From Patescibacteria group bacterium (GTDB lineage Bacteria > Patescibacteriota > UBA1384 > XYA2-FULL-43-10 > 1-14-0-10-43-13): DNA of 64,000 bases. The notes beneath the pieces are model-generated. The model saw only the letters and a list, made by a program, of their open reading frames with translations. It was not told the DNA's origin and made no database searches. The position numbers and the translations under genes are program-made. This document shows positions 5,757-49,282 of this stretch, in pieces. The stretch lies in the NCBI GenBank assembly GCA_041649155.1, contig JBAZNP010000001.1:430564-494563 (forward strand), read 5' to 3'. Every line of letters begins with the position of its first letter. Positions within the stretch are counted from its first letter, which is position 1.

Positions 5757-6008
5757 CTAGTTTATGGCTTCGATTGGAATAAATCCCAATCTAGCAGCTT
5801 TTCGCAGAGCTTGTATCCGGTTGGAAGCCTTAAGCTTGTTGTATGCATTGGCTAAATGATAGTCAATCGTTCGTTTACTGCAGACTAATATATCCGCAGC
5901 TTCTCGGGACGAAACTCCCTGAGAGATTGTAAGTAGAACTTCGGTTTCTCTCGCCGTCAGAACAACGGTTCTTGATGGTTCCTGTTCTGTGCTGATTGGC
6001 ATCACCAT
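5757..6008 (-). CDS. Stand-alone LuxR/FixJ-type HTH transcriptional regulator (83 aa)
   Basis: LTARETEVLLTISQGVSSREAADILVCSKRTIDYHLANAYNKL matches the LuxR-type HTH signature. A GGAGGA SD lies upstream on the minus strand. A hairpin plus T-run terminator sits at 5700-5740 on the minus strand. Confidence 0.6.
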   Translation of the reverse strand: MVMPISTEQEPSRTVVLTARETEVLLTISQGVSSREAADILVCSKRTIDYHLANAYNKLKASNRIQALRKAARLGFIPIEAIN

Positions 6009-22381: not shown

Positions 22382-25300
22382 ATGGAGGAATTAGATAAAA
22401 AACAGTTAGACGAGATTGCGCAACAAAAAGAATACCTCATTAGGCGTGAGGAGCTTTTGGATTTGAAAATTAATGCCATTCAGAAGTCAACAAAAACTAA
22501 CATCAAAAGACTTCAACCTCTTCATGAAAAACTAAGAGCCAAGTGGAGATGGTATTATAAGTGGCATCTTTCTCCTTGGTCAAATATTCTCCATTATTTT
22601 GTTCTAATTACCGTTCTTACTGGTTTCAGTTTCTCTGCATTTACCCAAATGGGATCATTCTTTTCTATCCAAAGGGCTAGAGCTGCTGCTTTTACTTCTG
22701 TGGCCGATGGGGCTTGGAGTGATCAGTGTACATGGATTGTCACATGTGATAGCGGAACTCCCGGAGCTAGTGATTCTGTCACAATTAATCATGCCGTCAC
22801 GGTTTCTGCTGATGTTTCTGTCGGAGGAATCACAGTTAGCGATACAAAAACTTTAAGCATAAACACAGGAATAACCATTACCGCTTCTGGCGCAGTCGAT
22901 CTGGGAATCTCCGGGACAGTATCTGGAGCTGGTACTCTAACTCTCCCTGACGGAGCAGGAGCACTGCTTGATCTTGATGGTACGCTAAGCAGTAAGGTTC
23001 GCTTTGACACCGTCACAGCTGACGTCGCCATTCCGGCTAGAACTTACGGTGGAGTTGTTGAAGTATATAACAATACAGCTACGAATTATAATGCTACTCT
23101 TGGAACTACAAGTGGACAAACAATCACTTTCAGTAACAACTTTAATCCTATTACTGATTCAACTGGCCAAATTTTACTTAAAGCTGATACCTATAATCCA
23201 AGTATTAATGTTGTCGGTAGCTACACTACCACCAAGAATAGTACAGGCGTGATCACTACAAATATGGGCTCAGGCACATGGACCGTTTCCGGCAGCTGGA
23301 ACACCTGTCAGGGCAATGCAGGAATCGTGAACAAAGGCACCTCTACTTTGATTCTAAATGGCAGCAATCAGAGCATATCTGTTGCCAACGGTAGCAGTGT
23401 TTTTTATAATTTAACTATTAGCGGCACTATTAACCCGAAAAATGATTACAGTGGTACGCCCTATGTAGCTCATCAATTTACTGTTACAAGTGGTGCTGTT
23501 TTAACATTGGGCTCTAGCGCTGGAACGCTTGTTGAAAATGGAGGTACTGTCTCGTTAGGGGATTTTTCAACAATTACCGGTACAGGGATACTAATTTTAC
23601 AAGGTAGCTCCGGTTCTTCTCTGGGAACAAATGGAACGATTAGCTCAACCGTAAAATTTGACAGTAATGGTATAGATGGAGGTGTTGCTGCCCGAGACTA
23701 CTATGGGCCAGTCATTTTGAGTGATTGTGCTTATTCTAATAGAACTTTAACCTTGGGTACTGCCATTAGCCAAACGATTAACTTCCACTCTGACGTGACA
23801 ATTAAAACCTGGTGTGGAGGTACTGCTACGCTTGCCGTTACTGCTGCTACGTACAACCCGAACATTAATATTTTAGGCAATTTGACAGTTTCTCAATTGG
23901 CTGGCACAACAATTACGACTAATATGGGTTCTTCCACTTGGACAGTTTATGGCAATGTCGATCTAACTGGTTCTACAATTACTCCCGGCACTTCCATTAT
24001 GAATATGGCTAAGATGTCAGGTATCCAAACATTAAATACTGGTAACACTTCACTTGGTAGTGTTGTTCATATAGGTAGCGGCACGCTTCAAGCAGTTACT
24101 AATAATGCCGGCATGGCAAACTTTACTGCTCCTGTTACTTATTCAAAAATCAAAACTATTATCATAGATCACACTAAAGTTGGCGAAGCCCTAACTGATT
24201 TCCCGATGCTCTATTCAGTTACTGATGTCAACTTGAAAACTGTTGTTAACGGCGGAAGCGTTACTAATGCCAATGGTTATGATATTATTTTTACCGATTC
24301 AAATGGTGCCAAGCTCGATCATGAATTGGAAAAATATGATGCCACGACCGGAGAGCTGACTGCATGGATTAAAATTCCTTCATTATCAAATACAGTTGAT
24401 ACAACTCTGAATCTTCTTTACGGTAACTCCACTATTTCAACTTCTCAAGAAAATAAAACTGGCGTTTGGAGCAATGGATATGCAGCGGTTTGGCATATGA
24501 ATGAGGGCTCGGGAAATATTAATGATTCCACTGCTGGAGTAAATTATGGCACCACTACAAATGTCACTTATGGTGCAAGCGGAAAGATTGGATCTGCAAC
24601 AAGCTACAATCGTACAGGCAGAATAAATATTACTACAAGCCCGGTGATCGCAGGAACGTTTACGTACGAAGGATGGACCAAACCTACCAATCCTGAAAAT
24701 GATACTTTAGTTTTTGTTGGATCGAGATCTCCTGAAACGCATGGCTTTAACTTGAAGTATAATTGGGCAAAAATTCAAGGAGATTTAGGTAACGGTACGA
24801 GCTGGATAAGTGGTTTTGGCCAAACAACCGGGTTTTCTCCAGTGAGTGGTACTTGGTATCATGTCGTACTCGTTGTCACGCCTACAACTTGGCAATATTA
24901 TGTAGATGGTGTGCCCAAAGGAAACGGGAGTCTTTCGGGGTCGTCCATTCCAATATTTTCAGATTCTCAACATCTAATAGCTATAGGAGCAGGAGGACAA
25001 GAAGGAGGCGATCCGTTTGTTGGATCAATAGATGATTCAAGGATATCGCCAGTTGCTCGTTCTGCCGGGTGGATTTCTACTGAATATGCCAACCAAAATA
25101 TCCCTTCAGCCTTTTATTCTACAGGCGCAGAAGCAGCTACGACACCGACCATCGATGCTAATGGCTTGTCTTTCAATGTTGGTGGAAATTTTGTTGGTAA
25201 TTCTCAGCAAACTTTTTCTTCAACTGGCACTTTGGCTATGATCTCAACTACTACTGGTCATACTATTGCAGCAAATGGTATGACGATTCCAAATATTTCA

Positions 25301-28300
25301 TTTTCTGGCACAAATGGGAGATGGTCCTTTTCTGATAATACAACTATTTTAGGGAGTCTTACTATAAATTCAGGTGCTATTTTGGACGGTGGTACAAGAA
25401 CTATAACTGTTGGGGATAATACAGGAACTGATGACTGGATCAACAATGGTACATTTAATTACGATACTTCAACTGTTAACTTAATCGGAACAGGAAATAT
25501 CAGCAGAACTGCTTTTAAAGATCATGCCTTTTTTAATTTAACCGCGGCAGCAGCCGGAAAAACTACTACAGCAAGTTTGTATTCTACCATATCAGTATAT
25601 GGTACTTGTACCTTTGGCTCAGGCACGTTCAATGCTCCTACCTCAACTGACAAACTACTTGCTTTTTCGTCTGGCGGAACACCGTTTGTTACAGCTGGCG
25701 CAACATTAACAGGCAAGATTGGGTATGGATCAAGCAATACAACCAATATCGCAGCTACAACGTATGATATATTGTTAATCCAAGCAAGTAACGGCGCAAT
25801 TAATACTGCAGCTGGAAACATAACAGCTAACTCCATTATCTTGAGGCATGGAACAGGAGTGAGCGGTTCTTTTGATACCAACGGTCACGATCTAACCGTG
25901 ACTGGTGATCTAGACATCGGACAAGATAGTTATAACAGAAAAAATACTTTCAAACCCAGCGCAGGAGGCAATATAAATGTGGGGGGGAATGTTAATATTA
26001 ATTTAGATACAGCGACAGGTAATAATGCTATTGATTTATCTTCTTTTACCGGCACTTTTAACGTGGCCGGTAATTTCACCAATAACGACACTTTCACGGC
26101 TGGCAATTCTACCGTCAATTTCACTGGTGTCAACCAAACAATCACAGGCTCAACCACGTTCTACAATTTCAGCAAAACAGATACGACGAATGATTCCACT
26201 GACAAAACATTAACCTTTGCAACTGGTTCAACTACAACAATAAGTAACAACCTAACTCTAACCGGATTAGACGATAATGACAGAGTAAATCTGGTTTCTT
26301 CTTCGCCTGGTACGACATATAATTTAGCAGGTCTTTCTGGCGCGAAGACGATTTCCTGGGTTGATGTTAAAGATTCAATCGCTTCCGCTGAAATAGTTGC
26401 TTCAGAAAGTAAAGACTCTGGCAATAATACCAATTGGAATTTGGTAAAAACATTAACTTTTTCCGTCACACCATTAACTGGAACTGTAAATTCTCCGCTA
26501 GCTGCCGCTATCACTGCCAAAGATGGGACAGGGGCCGCAACTAACGCAATTGGAGATGGAATTATTTTATCTGCTGACTCTGGGACTATTACACCTAGCA
26601 CTGTTACTCAGGCCAACATGACGGGTGGTTCATGGACTAGTAATATCGCTCTCGATGCAGTAGGCGATAGAACAGTCACTGCCACTTTAACAGGATTAAC
26701 TCCTCTAACTGATACAATCATCATTTCACCCGATGTGCTCGATCACTTCGTTATTTCCGGTGTTCCCGCATCAGTTACAGTACAGTCTTCCTTTACTAAT
26801 CCAATTATAGTTACCGCTTACGATGCTTGGGGTAATATCAAGATAGATTATGTTGGCCAAATTTACTTCACCTCTACTGATGGGGCAGCCACACTTCCAT
26901 ATACATCGGGGAGCAAATACATTTTTACCGGTCTTGATGCCGGTTATCATTCTTTTCCTGGTTCCGGTTTCAAATTAAACTCTACCGGTACCTATACAAT
27001 ATCAGTTACTGATTCTGTTGCTGCTATTACTGAAGAATCGAGCAGTATCACATCCAATCCTGCTGCTTTGGGTTCATTTATAATCTCCGGTTATCCTGTT
27101 TCAACTGTTGCTGGTGATGCTTTTGCCACTCCAGCTAACGATATCACGGTCACAGCCAAAGACATTTATGGAAATGTTAAAACCGATTATACTGGAGATC
27201 TCTGGTTTACAACCACCGATGCTTCAGGTTCGGTAGTTTTACCTTACACTTCCGGCAGTCACTATACTTTTGTCGGAGGCGATAGTGGCGTTCGTATGTT
27301 TGCCGGTTCCGGTTTCACATTAATAACTGCTAACGGCACCAAAACAATCTCTGCAACAAATGGATCGGTTGCTGTCACTTCCAGCCCAATTACTATTAAT
27401 CCAGCTACACTTCACCATTTTACACTTGGAGATTATCCTCAGGCTTCGGCTAATCAATTCGCGACAGCCGGATATGACTGGTCAACCACCGGCACGGGTG
27501 GCGGGTCAAATGCTCCATATGATATAGTCGTGACTGCTTATGACAACTTTGGGAATGTTAAACAGGATTTTGCCGGTACGGTCTGGTTTACCATTGAGAA
27601 TGGCATTACTTCTGCTTTTCCATATGATTCTGCTGAAAATTCATATACCTTTAGCACAAATGGCGGAAGTGTAAGAACGACTAAGGCAGATAGTTCTGAT
27701 AATGGCAGACATATTTTTGACGCCAATACGTTCACAATTTCCACAGCAGATCCGTCAGCTGATTTTACAGTCAATACTTCTGGGATATCTTCAACTTTCC
27801 AGATTAAAATTAAGCCTGCTTCTATTGCTTCAGTTACTGTTACACTCAATCCTACTTTTTCAAACAAACTCGTCGACACACAATTAACTGAAAATGTTAT
27901 TATTACGGCTTACGACTCTGCAGGCAATGTTAAAACGGATTATGAAGGTGATATTTATTTCACCTCATCTGATACATCTGCTGCTTTGCCTTATACAGAA
28001 CAAAACAAATGCACCTTTTCTCTTCTCGATGGTGGCACAAAAACATTTACTTCAGCCAATACCCCAACCAACTATTTTAATTTTCACACAGGTGGTAATC
28101 ATACCTTAAGCGTAGTAGCGGAGGCTGATGTTGATACGATTGTTGGGAATTCCTCAACTTTTACAATCTCTGCTCATACTTCGACCAGTGTTCAGGCTAC
28201 TGCTGGCCATACTCAAGCCATTTTGGACTGGCTCAATCCGACTGATCCGGCTGTTTCTAATATGAATATCTATCAATCTGATACAGAAGGAGTATTGGGA

Positions 28301-30619
28301 TCGAAAATTGCCTCTCCTTCTGTTAATGCCGGAACATATTCTCAATACATTGTGACTGGTTTAAATAACGGTCAGACCTACTACTTTACACTTAAAGCTG
28401 TTGTTAAGACTCCCCAGCAGATAGAGGTGGAGTCGATCGCTTCAGATCAGGTCTCGGCTATGCCGGCCGACATTGCGGCCAGAAATATTTCCGCTATTCA
28501 ATTAGCTGATGACAGAGTTAAAGTGGATTATGATTTGAGATACGACTCAACAGTCTCTATTCAATACTACAATCCGGATACCTCGACATGGGCCAGCGCT
28601 TCAACCGGAGCTCAGACGGGGGATGTGGGGGCGGGTCAAACTGGCACAGAAGGATTAACTAGTCATACAGCTTACTGGACAGCTAAAACTGACTTTAATA
28701 CTAAGTATTATTCCTCTTCTCAGGGTTTTAAGATTAGAGTAAAGGTAGTCGTCCCAAGTCAGGGTGATTCTCAAGCAACTTCACCAAGTCCGTCTTTTCA
28801 ACTTGATACAAAAGATCCGTTCAGCACTTCTTTAACTGTTGATGCATCGGGTGATTCTACGGCTAATTTAACAATTGCAGCTTCTGAAAATGGTTCCAAT
28901 ACAATTACGATGATGATTGCCAATGAGCCTACATTTGCAGGCAAAACATATCAAGCTTATGCGACTTCGATTACAAACTGGAACCTGGAAGACAAGAGCG
29001 TTGTTTATATTAGGTTTAAAGATCCGTATTCAAATACTACAACTATCCATACTGATTTAGTGCCGGTAGTAGATAATTTTATGATAAAAGATAATTCTGA
29101 TTTACGAACTCCTGCATACCAGTTGGTGGTGAGCTGGGCGGATAGCACGATAGATAATTTTGATCGTTATATTATTGAAAGGCAGGTCGATAATGGAGCA
29201 TTTAGCGAGCTAGTACGAACAAACCAGCCGGCCCATCTTGATATTAAGCTTTCAAAAGAGAACTTATATGGTTATAGAGTGAAGGTTCTTGATCAAAATG
29301 GTAATATTTCCCGTCCGACTGCAGTGTTGTCATCAAAGCCGGGTCTTGCTCCTGATGTAACCGGAACTCCAAGCGTCGAGGTCTTTGGATATAAGCAGGA
29401 TGTGGGTGTTAGGGTGACAGTGAAGTGGAATACTGATCAACTTTCGGATTCATTTGTGGCTTTCTCTACTGAAACTCTTGATGCGGGTCAAAATACACTG
29501 ACAACTTCAGGTCAAAATGCCAATATCATCGGTCAGCTTGATCGTTCAAGTACTCATGAAGTAACAATCACTAATCTTTTGCCTGGCAAAAAATATTCAA
29601 TGAAGGCTCTCTCTCAGAATGATCAGAAAATTACTGGTTATTCGAACATATTCGAGGTAAATACTCCGGAGTATTTACCTTTGCAGATCAAGAGTCTCGA
29701 GTTTACAGACATTCGTCCTGATTCTGTCTGGATTAACTGGCAAACTAACAAAGTTTCAACTACGGAACTCTTCTATGGTTTGGGCAGTAGTTTCGATAAG
29801 GTTCTGAATGATGATACCTTGAATACTGATCATAAGTTTAAAGTTGAGAATTTAACTCCTGGACAGGATTACAAGCTTAAAGTAGTTGCGGCAGATGAAG
29901 ATGGTAACGTTGTTAATTCCGATGAGTATGAATTGACTCCGCCAGCAGAACCTATTGTTTCGGGGGTTTCGGTGTCGGATATACTTAATAATCAGGCTAC
30001 GGTTAAATGGACAACCAATGTTAATACGGATTCAAATGTCGAATATGGATTAGATACTAGTTATGGCGCTCAGTCCGGCAAGTCTGACATGACAACTCAG
30101 CATTCAGTTACATTATTGGGTCTTGAAGGAAAAACTACTTATCATATTAAGGTAAAATCTAAAGATGTTTATGGTAAAGAAGCGGTTGCAGGAGACATGG
30201 CCTTCACTACAACAGCAGACAACGATCCTCCTAAATTAGTGGAAGTTCAATCCCAGCTCTCTCAGGTTGATTCTCCTCAGGGACCAAAATACCAGACAGT
30301 AATATCCTGGAAGACTGACGAAGGTTCAACCAGTCAGGTTGAATTTGGCGATAACGCTGCCGGTAAATATTCCAAATCTACGGCGGAAGATCCTTCTCTT
30401 AACATGACTCACGTCGTTATTCTTTCTGATTTGAAGCCAAATTCAGCTTATTCATACAGAGTCGTTTCTAAAGACAAATCAGGCAATGAGGCTAGATCAC
30501 AGAATTATACAATCATCACGCCTCCTCAGGAAAAATCACTGGTTCAGGTTGTTATAAGTAGTCTTTCAGAAACTTTCTCATGGGTTGGAAAATTAAGAAG
30601 CAAGTGGTTTGGAAATTAG
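22382..30619 (+). CDS. Giant (2745 aa) membrane-anchored cell-surface protein with beta-helix/T-rich repeats, a LamG (concanavalin-A-like) domain, multiple Ig-like (Big) repeats and C-terminal fibronectin type III repeats
   Basis: N-terminal coiled-coil plus one TM. LamG_3-type signature DDSRISPVARSAGWISTEYANQ at about 25030-25090. Repeated TAYD.WGN.K.DY.G...FTS.D......PYTS modules (Big-like) at about 26700-28100. FN3-like repeats with W..N......VEYG...Y and LKPNSAYSYRV from about 29300. Confidence 0.65.
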   Translation: MEELDKKQLDEIAQQKEYLIRREELLDLKINAIQKSTKTNIKRLQPLHEKLRAKWRWYYKWHLSPWSNILHYFVLITVLTGFSFSAFTQMGSFFSIQRARAAAFTSVADGAWSDQCTWIVTCDSGTPGASDSVTINHAVTVSADVSVGGITVSDTKTLSINTGITITASGAVDLGISGTVSGAGTLTLPDGAGALLDLDGTLSSKVRFDTVTADVAIPARTYGGVVEVYNNTATNYNATLGTTSGQTITFSNNFNPITDSTGQILLKADTYNPSINVVGSYTTTKNSTGVITTNMGSGTWTVSGSWNTCQGNAGIVNKGTSTLILNGSNQSISVANGSSVFYNLTISGTINPKNDYSGTPYVAHQFTVTSGAVLTLGSSAGTLVENGGTVSLGDFSTITGTGILILQGSSGSSLGTNGTISSTVKFDSNGIDGGVAARDYYGPVILSDCAYSNRTLTLGTAISQTINFHSDVTIKTWCGGTATLAVTAATYNPNINILGNLTVSQLAGTTITTNMGSSTWTVYGNVDLTGSTITPGTSIMNMAKMSGIQTLNTGNTSLGSVVHIGSGTLQAVTNNAGMANFTAPVTYSKIKTIIIDHTKVGEALTDFPMLYSVTDVNLKTVVNGGSVTNANGYDIIFTDSNGAKLDHELEKYDATTGELTAWIKIPSLSNTVDTTLNLLYGNSTISTSQENKTGVWSNGYAAVWHMNEGSGNINDSTAGVNYGTTTNVTYGASGKIGSATSYNRTGRINITTSPVIAGTFTYEGWTKPTNPENDTLVFVGSRSPETHGFNLKYNWAKIQGDLGNGTSWISGFGQTTGFSPVSGTWYHVVLVVTPTTWQYYVDGVPKGNGSLSGSSIPIFSDSQHLIAIGAGGQEGGDPFVGSIDDSRISPVARSAGWISTEYANQNIPSAFYSTGAEAATTPTIDANGLSFNVGGNFVGNSQQTFSSTGTLAMISTTTGHTIAANGMTIPNISFSGTNGRWSFSDNTTILGSLTINSGAILDGGTRTITVGDNTGTDDWINNGTFNYDTSTVNLIGTGNISRTAFKDHAFFNLTAAAAGKTTTASLYSTISVYGTCTFGSGTFNAPTSTDKLLAFSSGGTPFVTAGATLTGKIGYGSSNTTNIAATTYDILLIQASNGAINTAAGNITANSIILRHGTGVSGSFDTNGHDLTVTGDLDIGQDSYNRKNTFKPSAGGNINVGGNVNINLDTATGNNAIDLSSFTGTFNVAGNFTNNDTFTAGNSTVNFTGVNQTITGSTTFYNFSKTDTTNDSTDKTLTFATGSTTTISNNLTLTGLDDNDRVNLVSSSPGTTYNLAGLSGAKTISWVDVKDSIASAEIVASESKDSGNNTNWNLVKTLTFSVTPLTGTVNSPLAAAITAKDGTGAATNAIGDGIILSADSGTITPSTVTQANMTGGSWTSNIALDAVGDRTVTATLTGLTPLTDTIIISPDVLDHFVISGVPASVTVQSSFTNPIIVTAYDAWGNIKIDYVGQIYFTSTDGAATLPYTSGSKYIFTGLDAGYHSFPGSGFKLNSTGTYTISVTDSVAAITEESSSITSNPAALGSFIISGYPVSTVAGDAFATPANDITVTAKDIYGNVKTDYTGDLWFTTTDASGSVVLPYTSGSHYTFVGGDSGVRMFAGSGFTLITANGTKTISATNGSVAVTSSPITINPATLHHFTLGDYPQASANQFATAGYDWSTTGTGGGSNAPYDIVVTAYDNFGNVKQDFAGTVWFTIENGITSAFPYDSAENSYTFSTNGGSVRTTKADSSDNGRHIFDANTFTISTADPSADFTVNTSGISSTFQIKIKPASIASVTVTLNPTFSNKLVDTQLTENVIITAYDSAGNVKTDYEGDIYFTSSDTSAALPYTEQNKCTFSLLDGGTKTFTSANTPTNYFNFHTGGNHTLSVVAEADVDTIVGNSSTFTISAHTSTSVQATAGHTQAILDWLNPTDPAVSNMNIYQSDTEGVLGSKIASPSVNAGTYSQYIVTGLNNGQTYYFTLKAVVKTPQQIEVESIASDQVSAMPADIAARNISAIQLADDRVKVDYDLRYDSTVSIQYYNPDTSTWASASTGAQTGDVGAGQTGTEGLTSHTAYWTAKTDFNTKYYSSSQGFKIRVKVVVPSQGDSQATSPSPSFQLDTKDPFSTSLTVDASGDSTANLTIAASENGSNTITMMIANEPTFAGKTYQAYATSITNWNLEDKSVVYIRFKDPYSNTTTIHTDLVPVVDNFMIKDNSDLRTPAYQLVVSWADSTIDNFDRYIIERQVDNGAFSELVRTNQPAHLDIKLSKENLYGYRVKVLDQNGNISRPTAVLSSKPGLAPDVTGTPSVEVFGYKQDVGVRVTVKWNTDQLSDSFVAFSTETLDAGQNTLTTSGQNANIIGQLDRSSTHEVTITNLLPGKKYSMKALSQNDQKITGYSNIFEVNTPEYLPLQIKSLEFTDIRPDSVWINWQTNKVSTTELFYGLGSSFDKVLNDDTLNTDHKFKVENLTPGQDYKLKVVAADEDGNVVNSDEYELTPPAEPIVSGVSVSDILNNQATVKWTTNVNTDSNVEYGLDTSYGAQSGKSDMTTQHSVTLLGLEGKTTYHIKVKSKDVYGKEAVAGDMAFTTTADNDPPKLVEVQSQLSQVDSPQGPKYQTVISWKTDEGSTSQVEFGDNAAGKYSKSTAEDPSLNMTHVVILSDLKPNSAYSYRVVSKDKSGNEARSQNYTIITPPQEKSLVQVVISSLSETFSWVGKLRSKWFGN

Positions 30620-39948: not shown

Positions 39949-40032
39949 GCGGGTGTGGTGAAATGGTATACACGGCAGTTTTAGGAACTGTTGCCGAAAG
40001 GCGTGGAGGTTCGAGTCCTCTCACCCGCACCA
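39949..40032 (+). tRNA. tRNA-Leu (anticodon TAG), with a long variable arm
   Basis: GCGGGTG acceptor, D-arm, anticodon loop TTTAGGA, long extra arm TGCCGAAAGGCGTG, T-arm GAGGTTCGAGTCCTC and 3' CCA. Folded by eye. Confidence 0.8.
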
Positions 40033-40300
40033 AGAAGAATTTCCAATATTTGGGAGTTCTTTTTGGTATATGCTAATATTTAATTATGAATGATAAAGAT
40101 GATCAAAAACATGATAATTTAGATGAGATTGAGGAAAAGCTGATCCTCGAAGAGCAGGAGAAGAGGAAAATTCCCATGTCTGTCTCAGGCAGGAGCGTTT
40201 TTGAGATCAAACGAATAAAGGATAATAATAAAAAAGATTAAACTCATAATAGATATTTAAAAGGCCGGTGTTCAGCGGGTCTTTTTTTGAGCTTAATATA

Positions 40301-40329
40301 TTGACAAATACTTAAAAATAGTGTATAGT
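40301..40329 (+). promoter_or_regulatory. Canonical sigma70 promoter: TTGACA, 17-nt spacer, TATAGT
   Basis: TTGACA at 40301-40306 and TATAGT at 40324-40329, seen directly. Preceded by a hairpin plus T-run terminator at about 40264-40290. Confidence 0.55.
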
Positions 40330-40336
40330 CTAGGCA

Positions 40337-40492
40337 ACAAAGCTGAAGACCGATACCGCAAACTTGTTGAAAAACAAGGACGCAAAGCTAGATCGACTTA
40401 GGATCGATCCAAGGGCCTGAAAGTGGCAGCCAGTTGCCGAACCTTCGGCATGATCTCAGCTTTGTAATACACTCCTACAGGGGGATGTTACA
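40337..40492 (+). promoter_or_regulatory. Structured ~155-nt 5' leader, a candidate riboswitch that resembles the c-di-GMP-I (GEMM) aptamer
   Basis: ACCGCAAAC, then hairpin CUUG-UUGAAAAA-CAAG, then GACGCAAAGC, then hairpin GAUCGA-CUUAGGA-UCGAUC (40356-40405). This parallels the GGCAAAC, P1 hairpin, GGACGCAAAGC, P2 hairpin layout. Downstream lie the competing hairpins GGCA-GCCAGU-UGCC and GCCGAA-CCU-UUCGGC, and an SD (AGGGGGA) that can pair with an upstream CUCCU. Confidence 0.35.
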
Positions 40493-41140
40493 ATGCAGAA
40501 CGAGGTTAAGGAAAGAGCGACATGGAGATTATATGAGGGCGAGAGTTATATTTTTAATGGAGAGGTCTGGAAGAATAGACCATTACCAGTCACGATTTGG
40601 TGCCCATGGTGTTACCGTGAAACCAAAGTGATTGAGGTGTTCTATTCCGGCTCCCCTCAAGAAGTCTCCGGAAATTGTCTTAGTTGCGGCAAGAAAGTTG
40701 CAATCAAGGCAGAATTTAGCAAGCCAATGCCGGTTCCTGTGATTTCAGAAGAGCCGACTTATGGGCAAAATCGTTTCTTTGGGGTAATGCTTGGCCTGGC
40801 GGCGCTTGCGTCACATCGAGCAGTTCGTCCAGGTATGATGCCGAGAGTCCCCAATCCCTTACCTGATTCGGTTCAGGAAGGAAAGGAAATTTCATGTGAC
40901 AGGAAGTTGTTACCTCTTCGCAAAGAAGTAACAATTAAGTGTGATTGCGGAGGACAAACTGAGTCATTGGTTGTTCTTCGCAATTATGATGCGTATCTTG
41001 ATGAGAAAAAGGCGCTTGGACCTGATTTCACATCGAGAATAGGGTATCTCCGATATGCATTTGTGTATTCTCGGTTATACTTATCAGGTTTTTGCGGTGA
41101 ATGCCGCAAAAGAGTTGAGGCTTCTATTAAGCTCGACTAA
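40493..41140 (+). CDS. Hypothetical double zinc-ribbon protein with a central hydrophobic segment (215 aa)
   Basis: CPWC...CLSC and CDCGG...CGEC motif pairs. Hydrophobic stretch FFGVMLGLAALA. Followed by terminator GGACCG-GCGAATAT-CGGTCC plus T-run. GC visibly higher than in neighbouring genes. Confidence 0.5.
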   Translation: MQNEVKERATWRLYEGESYIFNGEVWKNRPLPVTIWCPWCYRETKVIEVFYSGSPQEVSGNCLSCGKKVAIKAEFSKPMPVPVISEEPTYGQNRFFGVMLGLAALASHRAVRPGMMPRVPNPLPDSVQEGKEISCDRKLLPLRKEVTIKCDCGGQTESLVVLRNYDAYLDEKKALGPDFTSRIGYLRYAFVYSRLYLSGFCGECRKRVEASIKLD

Positions 41141-41149
41141 ATTACAAAA

Positions 41150-41178
41150 AGGACCGGCGAATATCGCGGTCCTTTTTC
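41150..41178. terminator. Bidirectional intrinsic terminator between convergent genes
   Basis: GGACCGGCGAATATCGCGGTCC hairpin flanked by A-run and T-run. Confidence 0.55.
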
Positions 41179-41192
41179 CTTATGTAAAAAAG

Positions 41193-41996
41193 CTATTTTA
41201 CATTAACAGTGCCATCTTCTTGCTTGATTTCGAACTCAAAATCGAATGGATCAGATGGAATGGCCTTTAAGATTCTAGCACTTACTAAATCATTTAGTTC
41301 TGCGGGATATTTTTTATTTATCTCATAATATTGTTTTGAAGCTTGTTCCAAGAGGTTCATTATTTCAAAATGGATAAGATAGTTTTTAGCTCTTTCTTTT
41401 ACGATTTCGTCATTTGTTGTTTCGTAAATTCCGGCCCAGATTTGCTTTGTTTGTTCTCGTTTGTCTGATCTTGATCCATATCTGGTTGAAACTTTTTTAA
41501 TTCCATCGGGAACACCTGGTGTGTTTGCGGTTATATCAAAATATTTAGCGGCATTAACCGAATCATCTTTATCTAGATGGTAGGTTGTAGCCAGATAGTA
41601 AGGAATTCTCCAATCATTATTGATGTTTTCAACGCCTTTTTTGGCTAGTTCAATGCCTTGGTCAGTAAATTTAATACTTGGTAAGACAAGTGCCCCGAAT
41701 GCATAGGGATAGGCGAATTTGGAGTCCAAATCAGTTGATAAAGAAAGATAACTTGGTAATTTCTCACTCGTTTTGCTTTCACTTCCACCGAAATATTGAA
41801 TGGCTAAGAGCCAAGTTGCATCGGCTGCCGCATTATCTAACCCGAGATCGGCTACTTTGATAATTTCTGGTTTTAAAACCAAGGGTTCTCTAAATAGCAT
41901 ATTCTTTTTTTGAACATCAAAAAGATATTGGACGGAAATGACGCCCGCCATGCAGGTTAGCAATAAGATGGTTGATAGATATTTTTTCATAAACAA
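41193..41996 (-). CDS. Putative lipoprotein (267 aa), unknown function
   Basis: Signal peptide with lipobox LLTC (MFMKKYLSTILLLTCMAG). Last gene of an ABC operon. Confidence 0.5.
   Translation of the reverse strand: MFMKKYLSTILLLTCMAGVISVQYLFDVQKKNMLFREPLVLKPEIIKVADLGLDNAAADATWLLAIQYFGGSESKTSEKLPSYLSLSTDLDSKFAYPYAFGALVLPSIKFTDQGIELAKKGVENINNDWRIPYYLATTYHLDKDDSVNAAKYFDITANTPGVPDGIKKVSTRYGSRSDKREQTKQIWAGIYETTNDEIVKERAKNYLIHFEIMNLLEQASKQYYEINKKYPAELNDLVSARILKAIPSDPFDFEFEIKQEDGTVNVK

Positions 41997-47495: not shown

Positions 47496-49282
<1,787 letters not shown>

Follow-up and report, generated by a model that had tools for sequence, protein, structure and literature searches.

A GEMM-I riboswitch aptamer with cytosine at a defining ligand contact precedes an orphan zinc-ribbon gene in Patescibacteria

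Introduction

Can a bacterium of the Patescibacteria, or candidate phyla radiation (CPR), control a gene through a riboswitch for a cyclic dinucleotide, and which ligand would such a switch read? The question is raised by a locus in a 64,000-nucleotide stretch of DNA from a Patescibacteria group bacterium (assembly GCA_041649155.1, contig JBAZNP010000001.1), referred to here at its full length as the window. In this locus, a leader of about 157 nt runs from a promoter to an open reading frame (ORF) of 215 amino acids. An earlier reading of the sequence alone had put the leader at about 155 nt and had likened it to the cyclic diguanylate (c-di-GMP)-I, or GEMM-I, riboswitch in a CPR-like genome; the database record of the encoded protein indeed names its source as "Patescibacteria group bacterium." Regulation in this phylum is almost unstudied, and a search of the literature found no natural riboswitch or c-di-GMP signaling described for it.

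The leader is an aptamer of the GEMM-I fold and thus belongs, by fold and score, to a known class. The whole unit is read here, at a probability of roughly 0.7, as a GEMM-I riboswitch that most likely binds c-di-GMP and turns off translation of the 215-amino acid protein. What is new is that one defining ligand contact has been changed to a base outside every curated variant of the class, in a phylum in which such signaling is essentially undescribed.

A GEMM-I aptamer in the leader

A scan of the entire window with Rfam 15 returned five tRNAs and a single match to RF01051, the c-di-GMP-I model (E 2e-5). The match is full-length and exceeds the gathering score of the model (Table 1), and RF01051 is also the top-scoring member of its clan for this sequence. 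The class named by the sequence-only reading, which had pointed to a covariance-model search as the way to check it, is thereby borne out, as are the motifs CCGCAAAC and GACGCAAAGC and the two hairpins that it had noticed. The first hairpin and both conserved cores align perfectly to the model, and the second stem aligns poorly. The latter is interrupted in its 5ʹ strand by a lineage-specific hairpin, and its tip is shortened to GCC-UGAAAGU-GGC, in which 3 bp close a loop of 7 nt. Parsed by hand, this stem is nevertheless paired in all homologous leaders, with compensatory changes.

Inserted hairpins occupy the same site of the second stem in three leaders, namely the window (40391–40409) and the related loci L006 (approximately 598–617) and L009 (approximately 149–173). 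The lower Rfam scores of these three leaders are due to the insertion and, in the window, to the reduced stem tip as well. The three hairpins are mutually unrelated, so the insertion site tolerates or favors an additional helix.

The architecture is that of Vc2 from Vibrio cholerae, the prototype of RF01051. Shared with Vc2 are the arrangement of three helices, the location in a 5ʹ untranslated region (UTR), a score above the gathering threshold, a GNRA-capped first hairpin set between G-C and C-G junction pairs, and the GCAAA and GACGCAAAGC cores; A47, A48, A49, C92, the bridging pair C44-G83, and the pair G14-C93 that caps helix P1 are likewise common to both. The window aptamer differs from Vc2 in having C in place of G20, in the inserted hairpin, truncated tip, and absent tetraloop receptor of its second stem, and in its Patescibacteria (CPR) host and orphan-family target gene.

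Conservation and covariation in homologous leaders

The target gene defines a small family. Among 5.8 billion clusters searched through a word index, only the protein itself was recovered. Exhaustive comparison by phmmer with 1.84 billion representatives turned up eight relatives, to which a profile search added two. The family is thus an orphan one of about ten relatives. When the fetched contigs were scanned with Rfam, an aptamer lay immediately 5ʹ of the gene in all nine distinct homologous loci, with scores of 35 to 75 bits, and the unit is conserved in front of every known gene of the family. Outside the aptamer, conservation extends to the promoter, the 5ʹ segment, the segment after the aptamer, the Shine-Dalgarno (SD) sequence, and the first codons, ATGCAG.

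Lineage-specific insertions cause MAFFT and RNAalifold to misalign the second stem when raw leaders are used. For the analysis of covariation, the insert was therefore cut out and GAAA put in place of the variable tip; with the leaders trimmed in this way, the MAFFT alignment of the nine cores had the expected register. In these trimmed cores, 94.9% of 234 cells hold a standard pair, compared with 84.7 ± 1.3% in shuffled alignments (0 of 500 shuffles as high), and 11 of the 26 pairs are altered on both sides, a number reached by a single shuffle in 500. Sliding the partners by one to three columns lowers pairing to 19% to 49%. Both stems thus covary across the nine leaders. Neither of the two outcomes that had been held to speak against a riboswitch, the lack of a significant model match and the lack of covariation in the proposed stems, was found.

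The ligand pocket and position 20

Pocket positions are given in Vc2 numbering, which was verified against PMC3764141. In Vc2, C22-G45, C44-G83, and G14-C93 are paired and G20, A47 to A49, and C92 are conserved (PMC3764141). A47 is the intercalating base and C92 the Watson-Crick partner of G-beta (PMC3764141, PMC6140456). G20, one of three bases in contact with the ligand, reads one c-di-GMP guanine on its Hoogsteen edge, and replacement of G20 by A gives rise to the cyclic GMP-AMP (cGAMP) class (PMC6140456, PMC5888326). Position 20 thus sets specificity in the switch from GEMM-I to GEMM-Ib, for which a protonated A20 has been reported (PMC6140456).

Most of this pocket is unchanged in the family. 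None of the nine leaders departs from A47, A48, A49 (window 40384–40386), C92 (40437), C44, G83, or the P1 cap, and the segments GACGC-AAA-GC and (G/A)-C-CGAA are invariant as well. The bridge corresponds to C40381 and G40429 in the window, with the 3ʹ-bulge G kept in every leader, and the G14-C93 cap is represented by invariant G-C and C-G pairs of the P1 core. The exception is position 20. The G expected there from RF01051 is a C in the window (40357), directly 5ʹ of GCAAAC, a replacement that was overlooked when the CCGCAAAC motif was first read. The same C is found in three assemblies of the genome of the window and, for L003 and L005, in two samples.

Across the nine leaders, position 20 alternates solely between G and C, with the remaining pocket fixed. 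Three leaders carry C (window, L003, and L006), and six carry G (L007, L008, L009, L010, L013, and L014). The leaders with C20 are exactly those that precede two-domain proteins of 209 to 233 amino acids. Each of them is closest to a leader with G20 (aptamer-core identity of 90% for L003 and L008, 86% for L006 and L007, and 78% for the window and L010, compared with 72% to 79% between C20 leaders); therefore, the change between G and C happened repeatedly, or the leaders recombined.

Curated Rfam variants are named by the bases at positions 20, 47, and 92, as the GGC model shows in its structure line, and the combination C/A/C of the window differs from all of them (GAC, AAC, GGC, and UAU). 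The cGAMP riboswitch (GEMM-Ib, Geobacter Gs1761) has the same fold, and position 20 is also where its class departs from GEMM-I, but it carries A20 rather than C20, and the window lacks exoelectrogenesis genes and belongs to another phylum. Clan CL00126 also contains the variants c-di-GMP-I-GGC (RF03167) and c-di-GMP-I-UAU (RF03168). For several sibling leaders, the GGC model gives the best score, since it includes P1 and lacks a receptor; however, GGC requires G47, and all nine leaders have A47 (window 40384). The UAU class calls for U at positions 20 and 92, both of which are C in the window.

A census of viral contigs gave 19 loci with the G20 pattern, eight of which contain nine genuine aptamers, and seven matches to the C20 core pattern, none of them an aptamer, a sample too small for an estimate of frequency. 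In some of these contigs, c-di-GMP-I aptamers occur alongside pemK RNA motifs (L025 3917–3997; L033 4873–4953; L029 2306–2968), and L029 holds two aptamers approximately 490 nt apart.

The substitution is read here as a functional alternative to G20 and not as decay. From base-pairing chemistry, C20 could still recognize guanine, either by C+:G Hoogsteen pairing, analogous to the protonated A20 of PMC6140456, or by Watson-Crick pairing. Since the G20 contact is a C in the window, the ligand is not certain, and the affinity for c-di-GMP is probably altered. The pocket is otherwise canonical, A47 and C92 included, and we infer that c-di-GMP is the likeliest ligand.

A predicted expression platform

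The sequence-only reading had also described alternative pairings and a hairpin burying the SD sequence, and both are found in folds and pairing tables. The 5ʹ end of the transcript can pair with either of two downstream strands. In one arrangement, it completes the P1 core and its extension, which are paired in 60 of 63 cells. In the other, it forms P0, a 13-bp helix predicted by RNAalifold, 92% paired, and carrying in the window a compensatory change from C-G to U-A. A small hairpin, H, forms in folds of the P0 state and is paired in 26 of 28 cells (100% in a second pairing table). Further downstream, a sequestering hairpin pairs CUCC with GGGG over the SD sequence and UUGUAAU with GUUACAA over the bases before the AUG; its outer stem shows 92% pairing and includes two compensatory pairs, and part of its 5ʹ strand also belongs to the 3ʹ strand of P0.

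Ensembles with P1 or P0 forced were compared in ViennaRNA for seven leaders. P0 is the more stable state by 0.9 to 7.2 kcal/mol in six of the seven. The mean probability that the AUG region (−6 to +9) is unpaired is approximately 0.59 with P0 and 0.27 with P1, and the value is greater with P0 in each of the seven leaders (0.34 to 0.74 versus 0.16 to 0.41). The platform model rests on this conserved dual complementarity and on energetics rather than on strong covariation.

On this model, the promoter at 40301–40329 would drive a leader that controls translation of the 215-amino acid protein. In the absence of ligand, nucleotides 40338–40351 would pair with 40452–40464 as P0 and hairpin H (40437–40448) would tie up C92, leaving the region of the start codon relatively open and the gene on. 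Ligand binding would let the 5ʹ strand close P1 and its extension against 40438–40449; the freed strand GAUCUCAGCUUUG could then lengthen the SD hairpin over the AUG and first codons, and the gene would be turned off. The switch is therefore modeled as probably a translational OFF switch.

Vc2, upstream of tfoY, is reportedly a translational OFF switch of the GEMM-I class, and Bc1 and Cd1 are said to be OFF switches of the terminator type. In OFF switches of this class, a P1 helix stabilized by ligand frees a strand that occludes the ribosome-binding site or start codon or that permits a terminator to form (PMC11218506). The arrangement proposed for the window resembles these in that a strand released by P1 would block the start codon. 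It differs in its competitor, which would be a 13-bp long-range helix involving the very start of the transcript, together with a hairpin sequestering C92, and in that its polarity comes from modeling.

One homolog, L013, has a different platform. Occlusion of the SD sequence and AUG is replaced by an intrinsic terminator at approximately 466–497 (UCUCGC...GCGAGAUUUUUU), and the P1 extension is its own (UGCGGUU/AAGCCGCA). The terminator has a probability of 0.98 with P1 and the pocket closed and 0.37 when the RNA is free, in which state the 3ʹ strand of P1 forms an antiterminator. Two unrelated platform designs would therefore share the same polarity, with ligand turning the gene off. Scans of metagenomes and Genome Taxonomy Database genomes with the signature of the window platform (CCGAAMCTTCGGN{2,3}GATCTCN{0,1}RRCTYTG) gave one match each, both in unrelated coding sequence with no aptamer and attributable to chance.

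Weighing the alternatives

Several observations weigh against a c-di-GMP-responsive translational OFF switch. The most serious concerns the ligand itself, as G20 is a defining contact that the window has replaced by C, and mutation of G20 in Vc2 has been reported to cost 30,000-fold in affinity for c-di-GMP (PMC4744006). The second stem lacks a tetraloop receptor and has a truncated tip. No GGDEF, EAL, or HD-GYP signature occurs in ORFs of at least 100 amino acids in the window, whose examined genes are housekeeping genes; the window represents less than one-tenth of the genome of approximately 800 kb, for which this absence tells little. As for the platform, P1 is more stable than P0 by 1.5 kcal/mol in L006, and accessibility of the SD sequence is nearly constant between the modeled states, with the AUG region alone shifting. 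Moreover, observed pairing is reached by 110 of 500 shuffles for P0 and H and by 22 of 500 for P1 and the sequestering hairpin, although these controls are uninformative because the platform sequences are too conserved.

It is unlikely, if worth serious attention, that the C20 leaders (window, L003, and L006) form a specificity variant that senses another cyclic or linear dinucleotide, as the change of G20 to A made the cGAMP class. The role of position 20 in that transition, a base combination that fits no Rfam class, the exclusive association of C20 with the long two-domain proteins, and the nine G20 but no genuine C20 aptamers in viral contigs all agree with such a variant. So does the occurrence of C20 in three aptamer backgrounds, each 78% to 90% identical to a G20 sibling in an otherwise invariant pocket. 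Against it, C can in principle read guanine, only G and C occur at the position in nine leaders, and syntenic orthologs stand under G20 in L007 and under C20 in the window, which suggests that the two bases are interchangeable; furthermore, the analysis yielded neither an alternative ligand candidate nor a synthase. A degenerate aptamer that binds no ligand, its leader a constitutive structured 5ʹ UTR, is far less probable. It would account for a window score of 44.4 bits, among the lowest of the family (six others score 59 to 75), for the reduced second stem without a receptor, and for a J1/2 junction 1 nt shorter than in the other leaders. However, the other pocket bases, the complementarities of P1, P0, and H, and the sequestering hairpin are all kept, P0 carries a compensatory change specific to the window, and C20 is common to two more leaders with compensatorily diverged stems. 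GEMM-I aptamers without a tetraloop receptor are, moreover, a normal subtype. A chance resemblance is scarcely credible and was rejected: nothing speaks for it, and the E value across the window, the presence of the aptamer at nine of nine loci, and strong covariation speak against it. A GEMM-I riboswitch most likely responsive to c-di-GMP remains the preferred reading.

The zinc-ribbon protein

The ORF list contains the 215-amino acid gene at the position first reported for it. Its product, a "hypothetical protein" by database name, consists of two well-predicted domains joined by a disordered linker: in an AlphaFold2 model built from a seven-sequence alignment, residues 8–79 and 120–215 have a predicted local distance difference test (pLDDT) score of 85 to 95, and the linker (80–119) one of 32 to 40. 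Of the two CxxC...CxxC pairs originally described, the one in the N-terminal domain holds, whereas the C-terminal domain has CxC...CxxC, with C150, C152, C201, and C204 invariant. Of nine family members examined, five have no N-terminal domain and are made up of the C-terminal one only. The protein matches no family in Pfam or NCBIfam and no PDB sequence, and no structural neighbors of the predicted fold were found; its score for Pfam PF12773 DZR, 16.6 bits (E 0.009) over residues 36–75 only, falls below the gathering cut-off of 27.3. The suggestion of a membrane protein did not hold up and was rejected, since the hydrophobic segment (approximately residues 94–105) is not conserved and lies in the linker, and no conserved or confidently predicted transmembrane helix is present. 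We infer a small, soluble zinc-binding protein that would be repressed at high signal.

The gene is monocistronic in the window. In L009 (764–3418) and L010 (802–1452), a type-II (Ca2+-like) P-type cation ATPase gene lies 80 to 100 nt 3ʹ of the zinc-ribbon gene on the same strand, and the two may form a riboswitch-controlled operon. The start called for the L007 gene (P0004, 5830) is probably wrong; a conserved ACAATGCAG start at 5809, in frame, yields MQRQKVVMMR..., like the MQRQ N termini of short family members.

Genomic setting

The layout of the unit (Table 1) agrees largely with its first description. The tRNA-Leu(TAG) gene, the terminator after the small ORF (a hairpin at 40259–40285 of modest stability, followed by a U-run), and the promoter are all where they had been placed, and the promoter is kept across related loci (TTGACA...AAAATAGTGTATNNT). 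The terminator downstream, also claimed to be bidirectional, is stable on both strands (z about −4.7) and is common to the zinc-ribbon gene and a convergent gene at 41193–41996. GC content is raised as reported, at 0.45 to 0.48 over 40350–41100 and 0.33 to 0.40 in the flanks. The 51-codon ORF is present and conserved, at 40086–40241 and thus one base off the 40085–40240 first given.

Table 1. Coordinates of the riboswitch unit and its flanking features in the window
Feature	Position	Strand	Evidence or remark
tRNA-Leu(TAG)	39949–40032	+	ARAGORN; Rfam tRNA 57 bits; upstream neighbor
Conserved 51-amino acid gene	40086–40241	+	ORF list; transcription unit separate from riboswitch promoter
Intrinsic terminator of small gene (hairpin 40259–40285 and U7)	40259–40288	+	−11.2 kcal/mol, z −2.3
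Sigma-70-type promoter, TTGACA-17-TATAGT	40301–40329	+	11 of 12 consensus positions match
Common 5ʹ switching strand CAAAGCUGAAGACCG	40338–40352	+	Predicted to pair with 40438–40449 (P1 core and extension) or 40452–40464 (P0)
GEMM-I (c-di-GMP-I-type) aptamer	40347–40441	+	RF01051 44.4 bits, gathering score 35, model positions 1–87
Equivalent of Vc2 G20 (G-alpha contact), C in window	40357	+	RF01051 model position 11
First aptamer hairpin, CUUGUU-GAAA-AACAAG, GNRA tetraloop	40363–40378	+	Six of six pairs covary in leaders
C44 (40381), G45-C46 junction pair (40382–40383), A47 (40384), A48 (40385)	40381–40385	+	Invariant, nine leaders
Extra lineage-specific hairpin in 5ʹ strand of second stem, GAUCGA-CUUAGGA-UCGAUC	40391–40409	+	Hand parse
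C92 equivalent (40437) and small hairpin H, CCGA/UCGG	40437–40448	+	Would sequester C92 and C93 in unbound state
P0 3ʹ strand GAUCUCAGCUUUG	40452–40464	+	RNAalifold, forced-state folds, pairing table
Predicted hairpin burying SD GGGGGA (40480–40485) and AUG (40493–40495)	40459–40496	+	Folds, pairing table
215-amino acid orphan protein, two Cys4 (zinc-ribbon-like) domains, disordered linker	40493–41140	+	ORF list
Bidirectional intrinsic terminator	41146–41177	both	−17.9 (plus) and −19 (minus) kcal/mol; z −4.8 and −4.65

The idea of a tRNA-adjacent mini-island fared less well. Gene order is common to the window, L003, and L007 and comprises RecG, ComEA, tRNA-Leu, the small ORF, the riboswitch gene, the convergent gene, and an ABC-2 permease. 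Because of this shared order, which includes a tRNA at the equivalent position in L007, the unit is a conserved chromosomal feature of the lineage and not a mobile island, and a mobile origin was rejected. No integrase occurs in the window unit; no search was made for direct repeats of the tRNA 3ʹ end. The convergent neighbor, of 265 to 300 amino acids, is at 41193–41996 (minus strand) in the window, 2052–2849 in L003, and 6482–7384 in L007, and it matches no family in Pfam or NCBIfam.

In L007, an IS30-like transposase gene (HTH_38 and rve; L007 4620–5609) separates the small ORF from the riboswitch promoter. It represents an insertion into the unit, and the L007 promoter, aptamer, and gene are intact despite it.

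In several loci, the small ORF 5ʹ of the riboswitch unit encodes a conserved, highly charged protein of 51 to 58 amino acids with the motif ...EEQEKRKIPMPVSGRSVFEIKRIK.... Its coordinates are 955–1197 in L003, 275–445 in L006, 4180–4356 in L007, and 94–249 in L013, where a 51-amino acid ORF occupies the equivalent position; the window ORF is 51% to 67% identical to those of L003, L006, and L007. In most loci it adjoins the unit directly, with the IS30-like insertion intervening in L007. No family could be assigned, a sub-threshold match to DUF3496 being the only one.

Elsewhere in the window, a 2745-amino acid ORF (22382–30619) with DUF2341, Laminin_G_3, and fibronectin-III-like matches probably encodes a surface protein. 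A gene of the "23S rRNA intervening sequence protein" family (PF05635; approximately 48902–49282, minus strand; L001 18410–18790) lies within the F-type ATP synthase operon, where the genes for the beta and gamma subunits flank it.

Implications for cyclic-dinucleotide signaling in Patescibacteria

Canonical G20 aptamers in six siblings, all tied to one orphan family, imply that these bacteria, whose genomes are reduced, use a cyclic-dinucleotide signal or eavesdrop on one, for which the orphan zinc-ribbon protein is a candidate output. The recurring change from G20 to C in otherwise intact switches is a natural experiment on the position that determines specificity. More speculatively, and with the odds clearly against it, the leaders with C20, A47, and C92 may constitute an unrecognized GEMM-I specificity or affinity class of one Patescibacteria lineage, responding either to a signal other than c-di-GMP or, through a protonated C, to c-di-GMP with lower and pH-dependent affinity. 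If such a class exists, the two-domain zinc-ribbon protein would be a cyclic-dinucleotide effector in ultrasmall episymbiotic bacteria.

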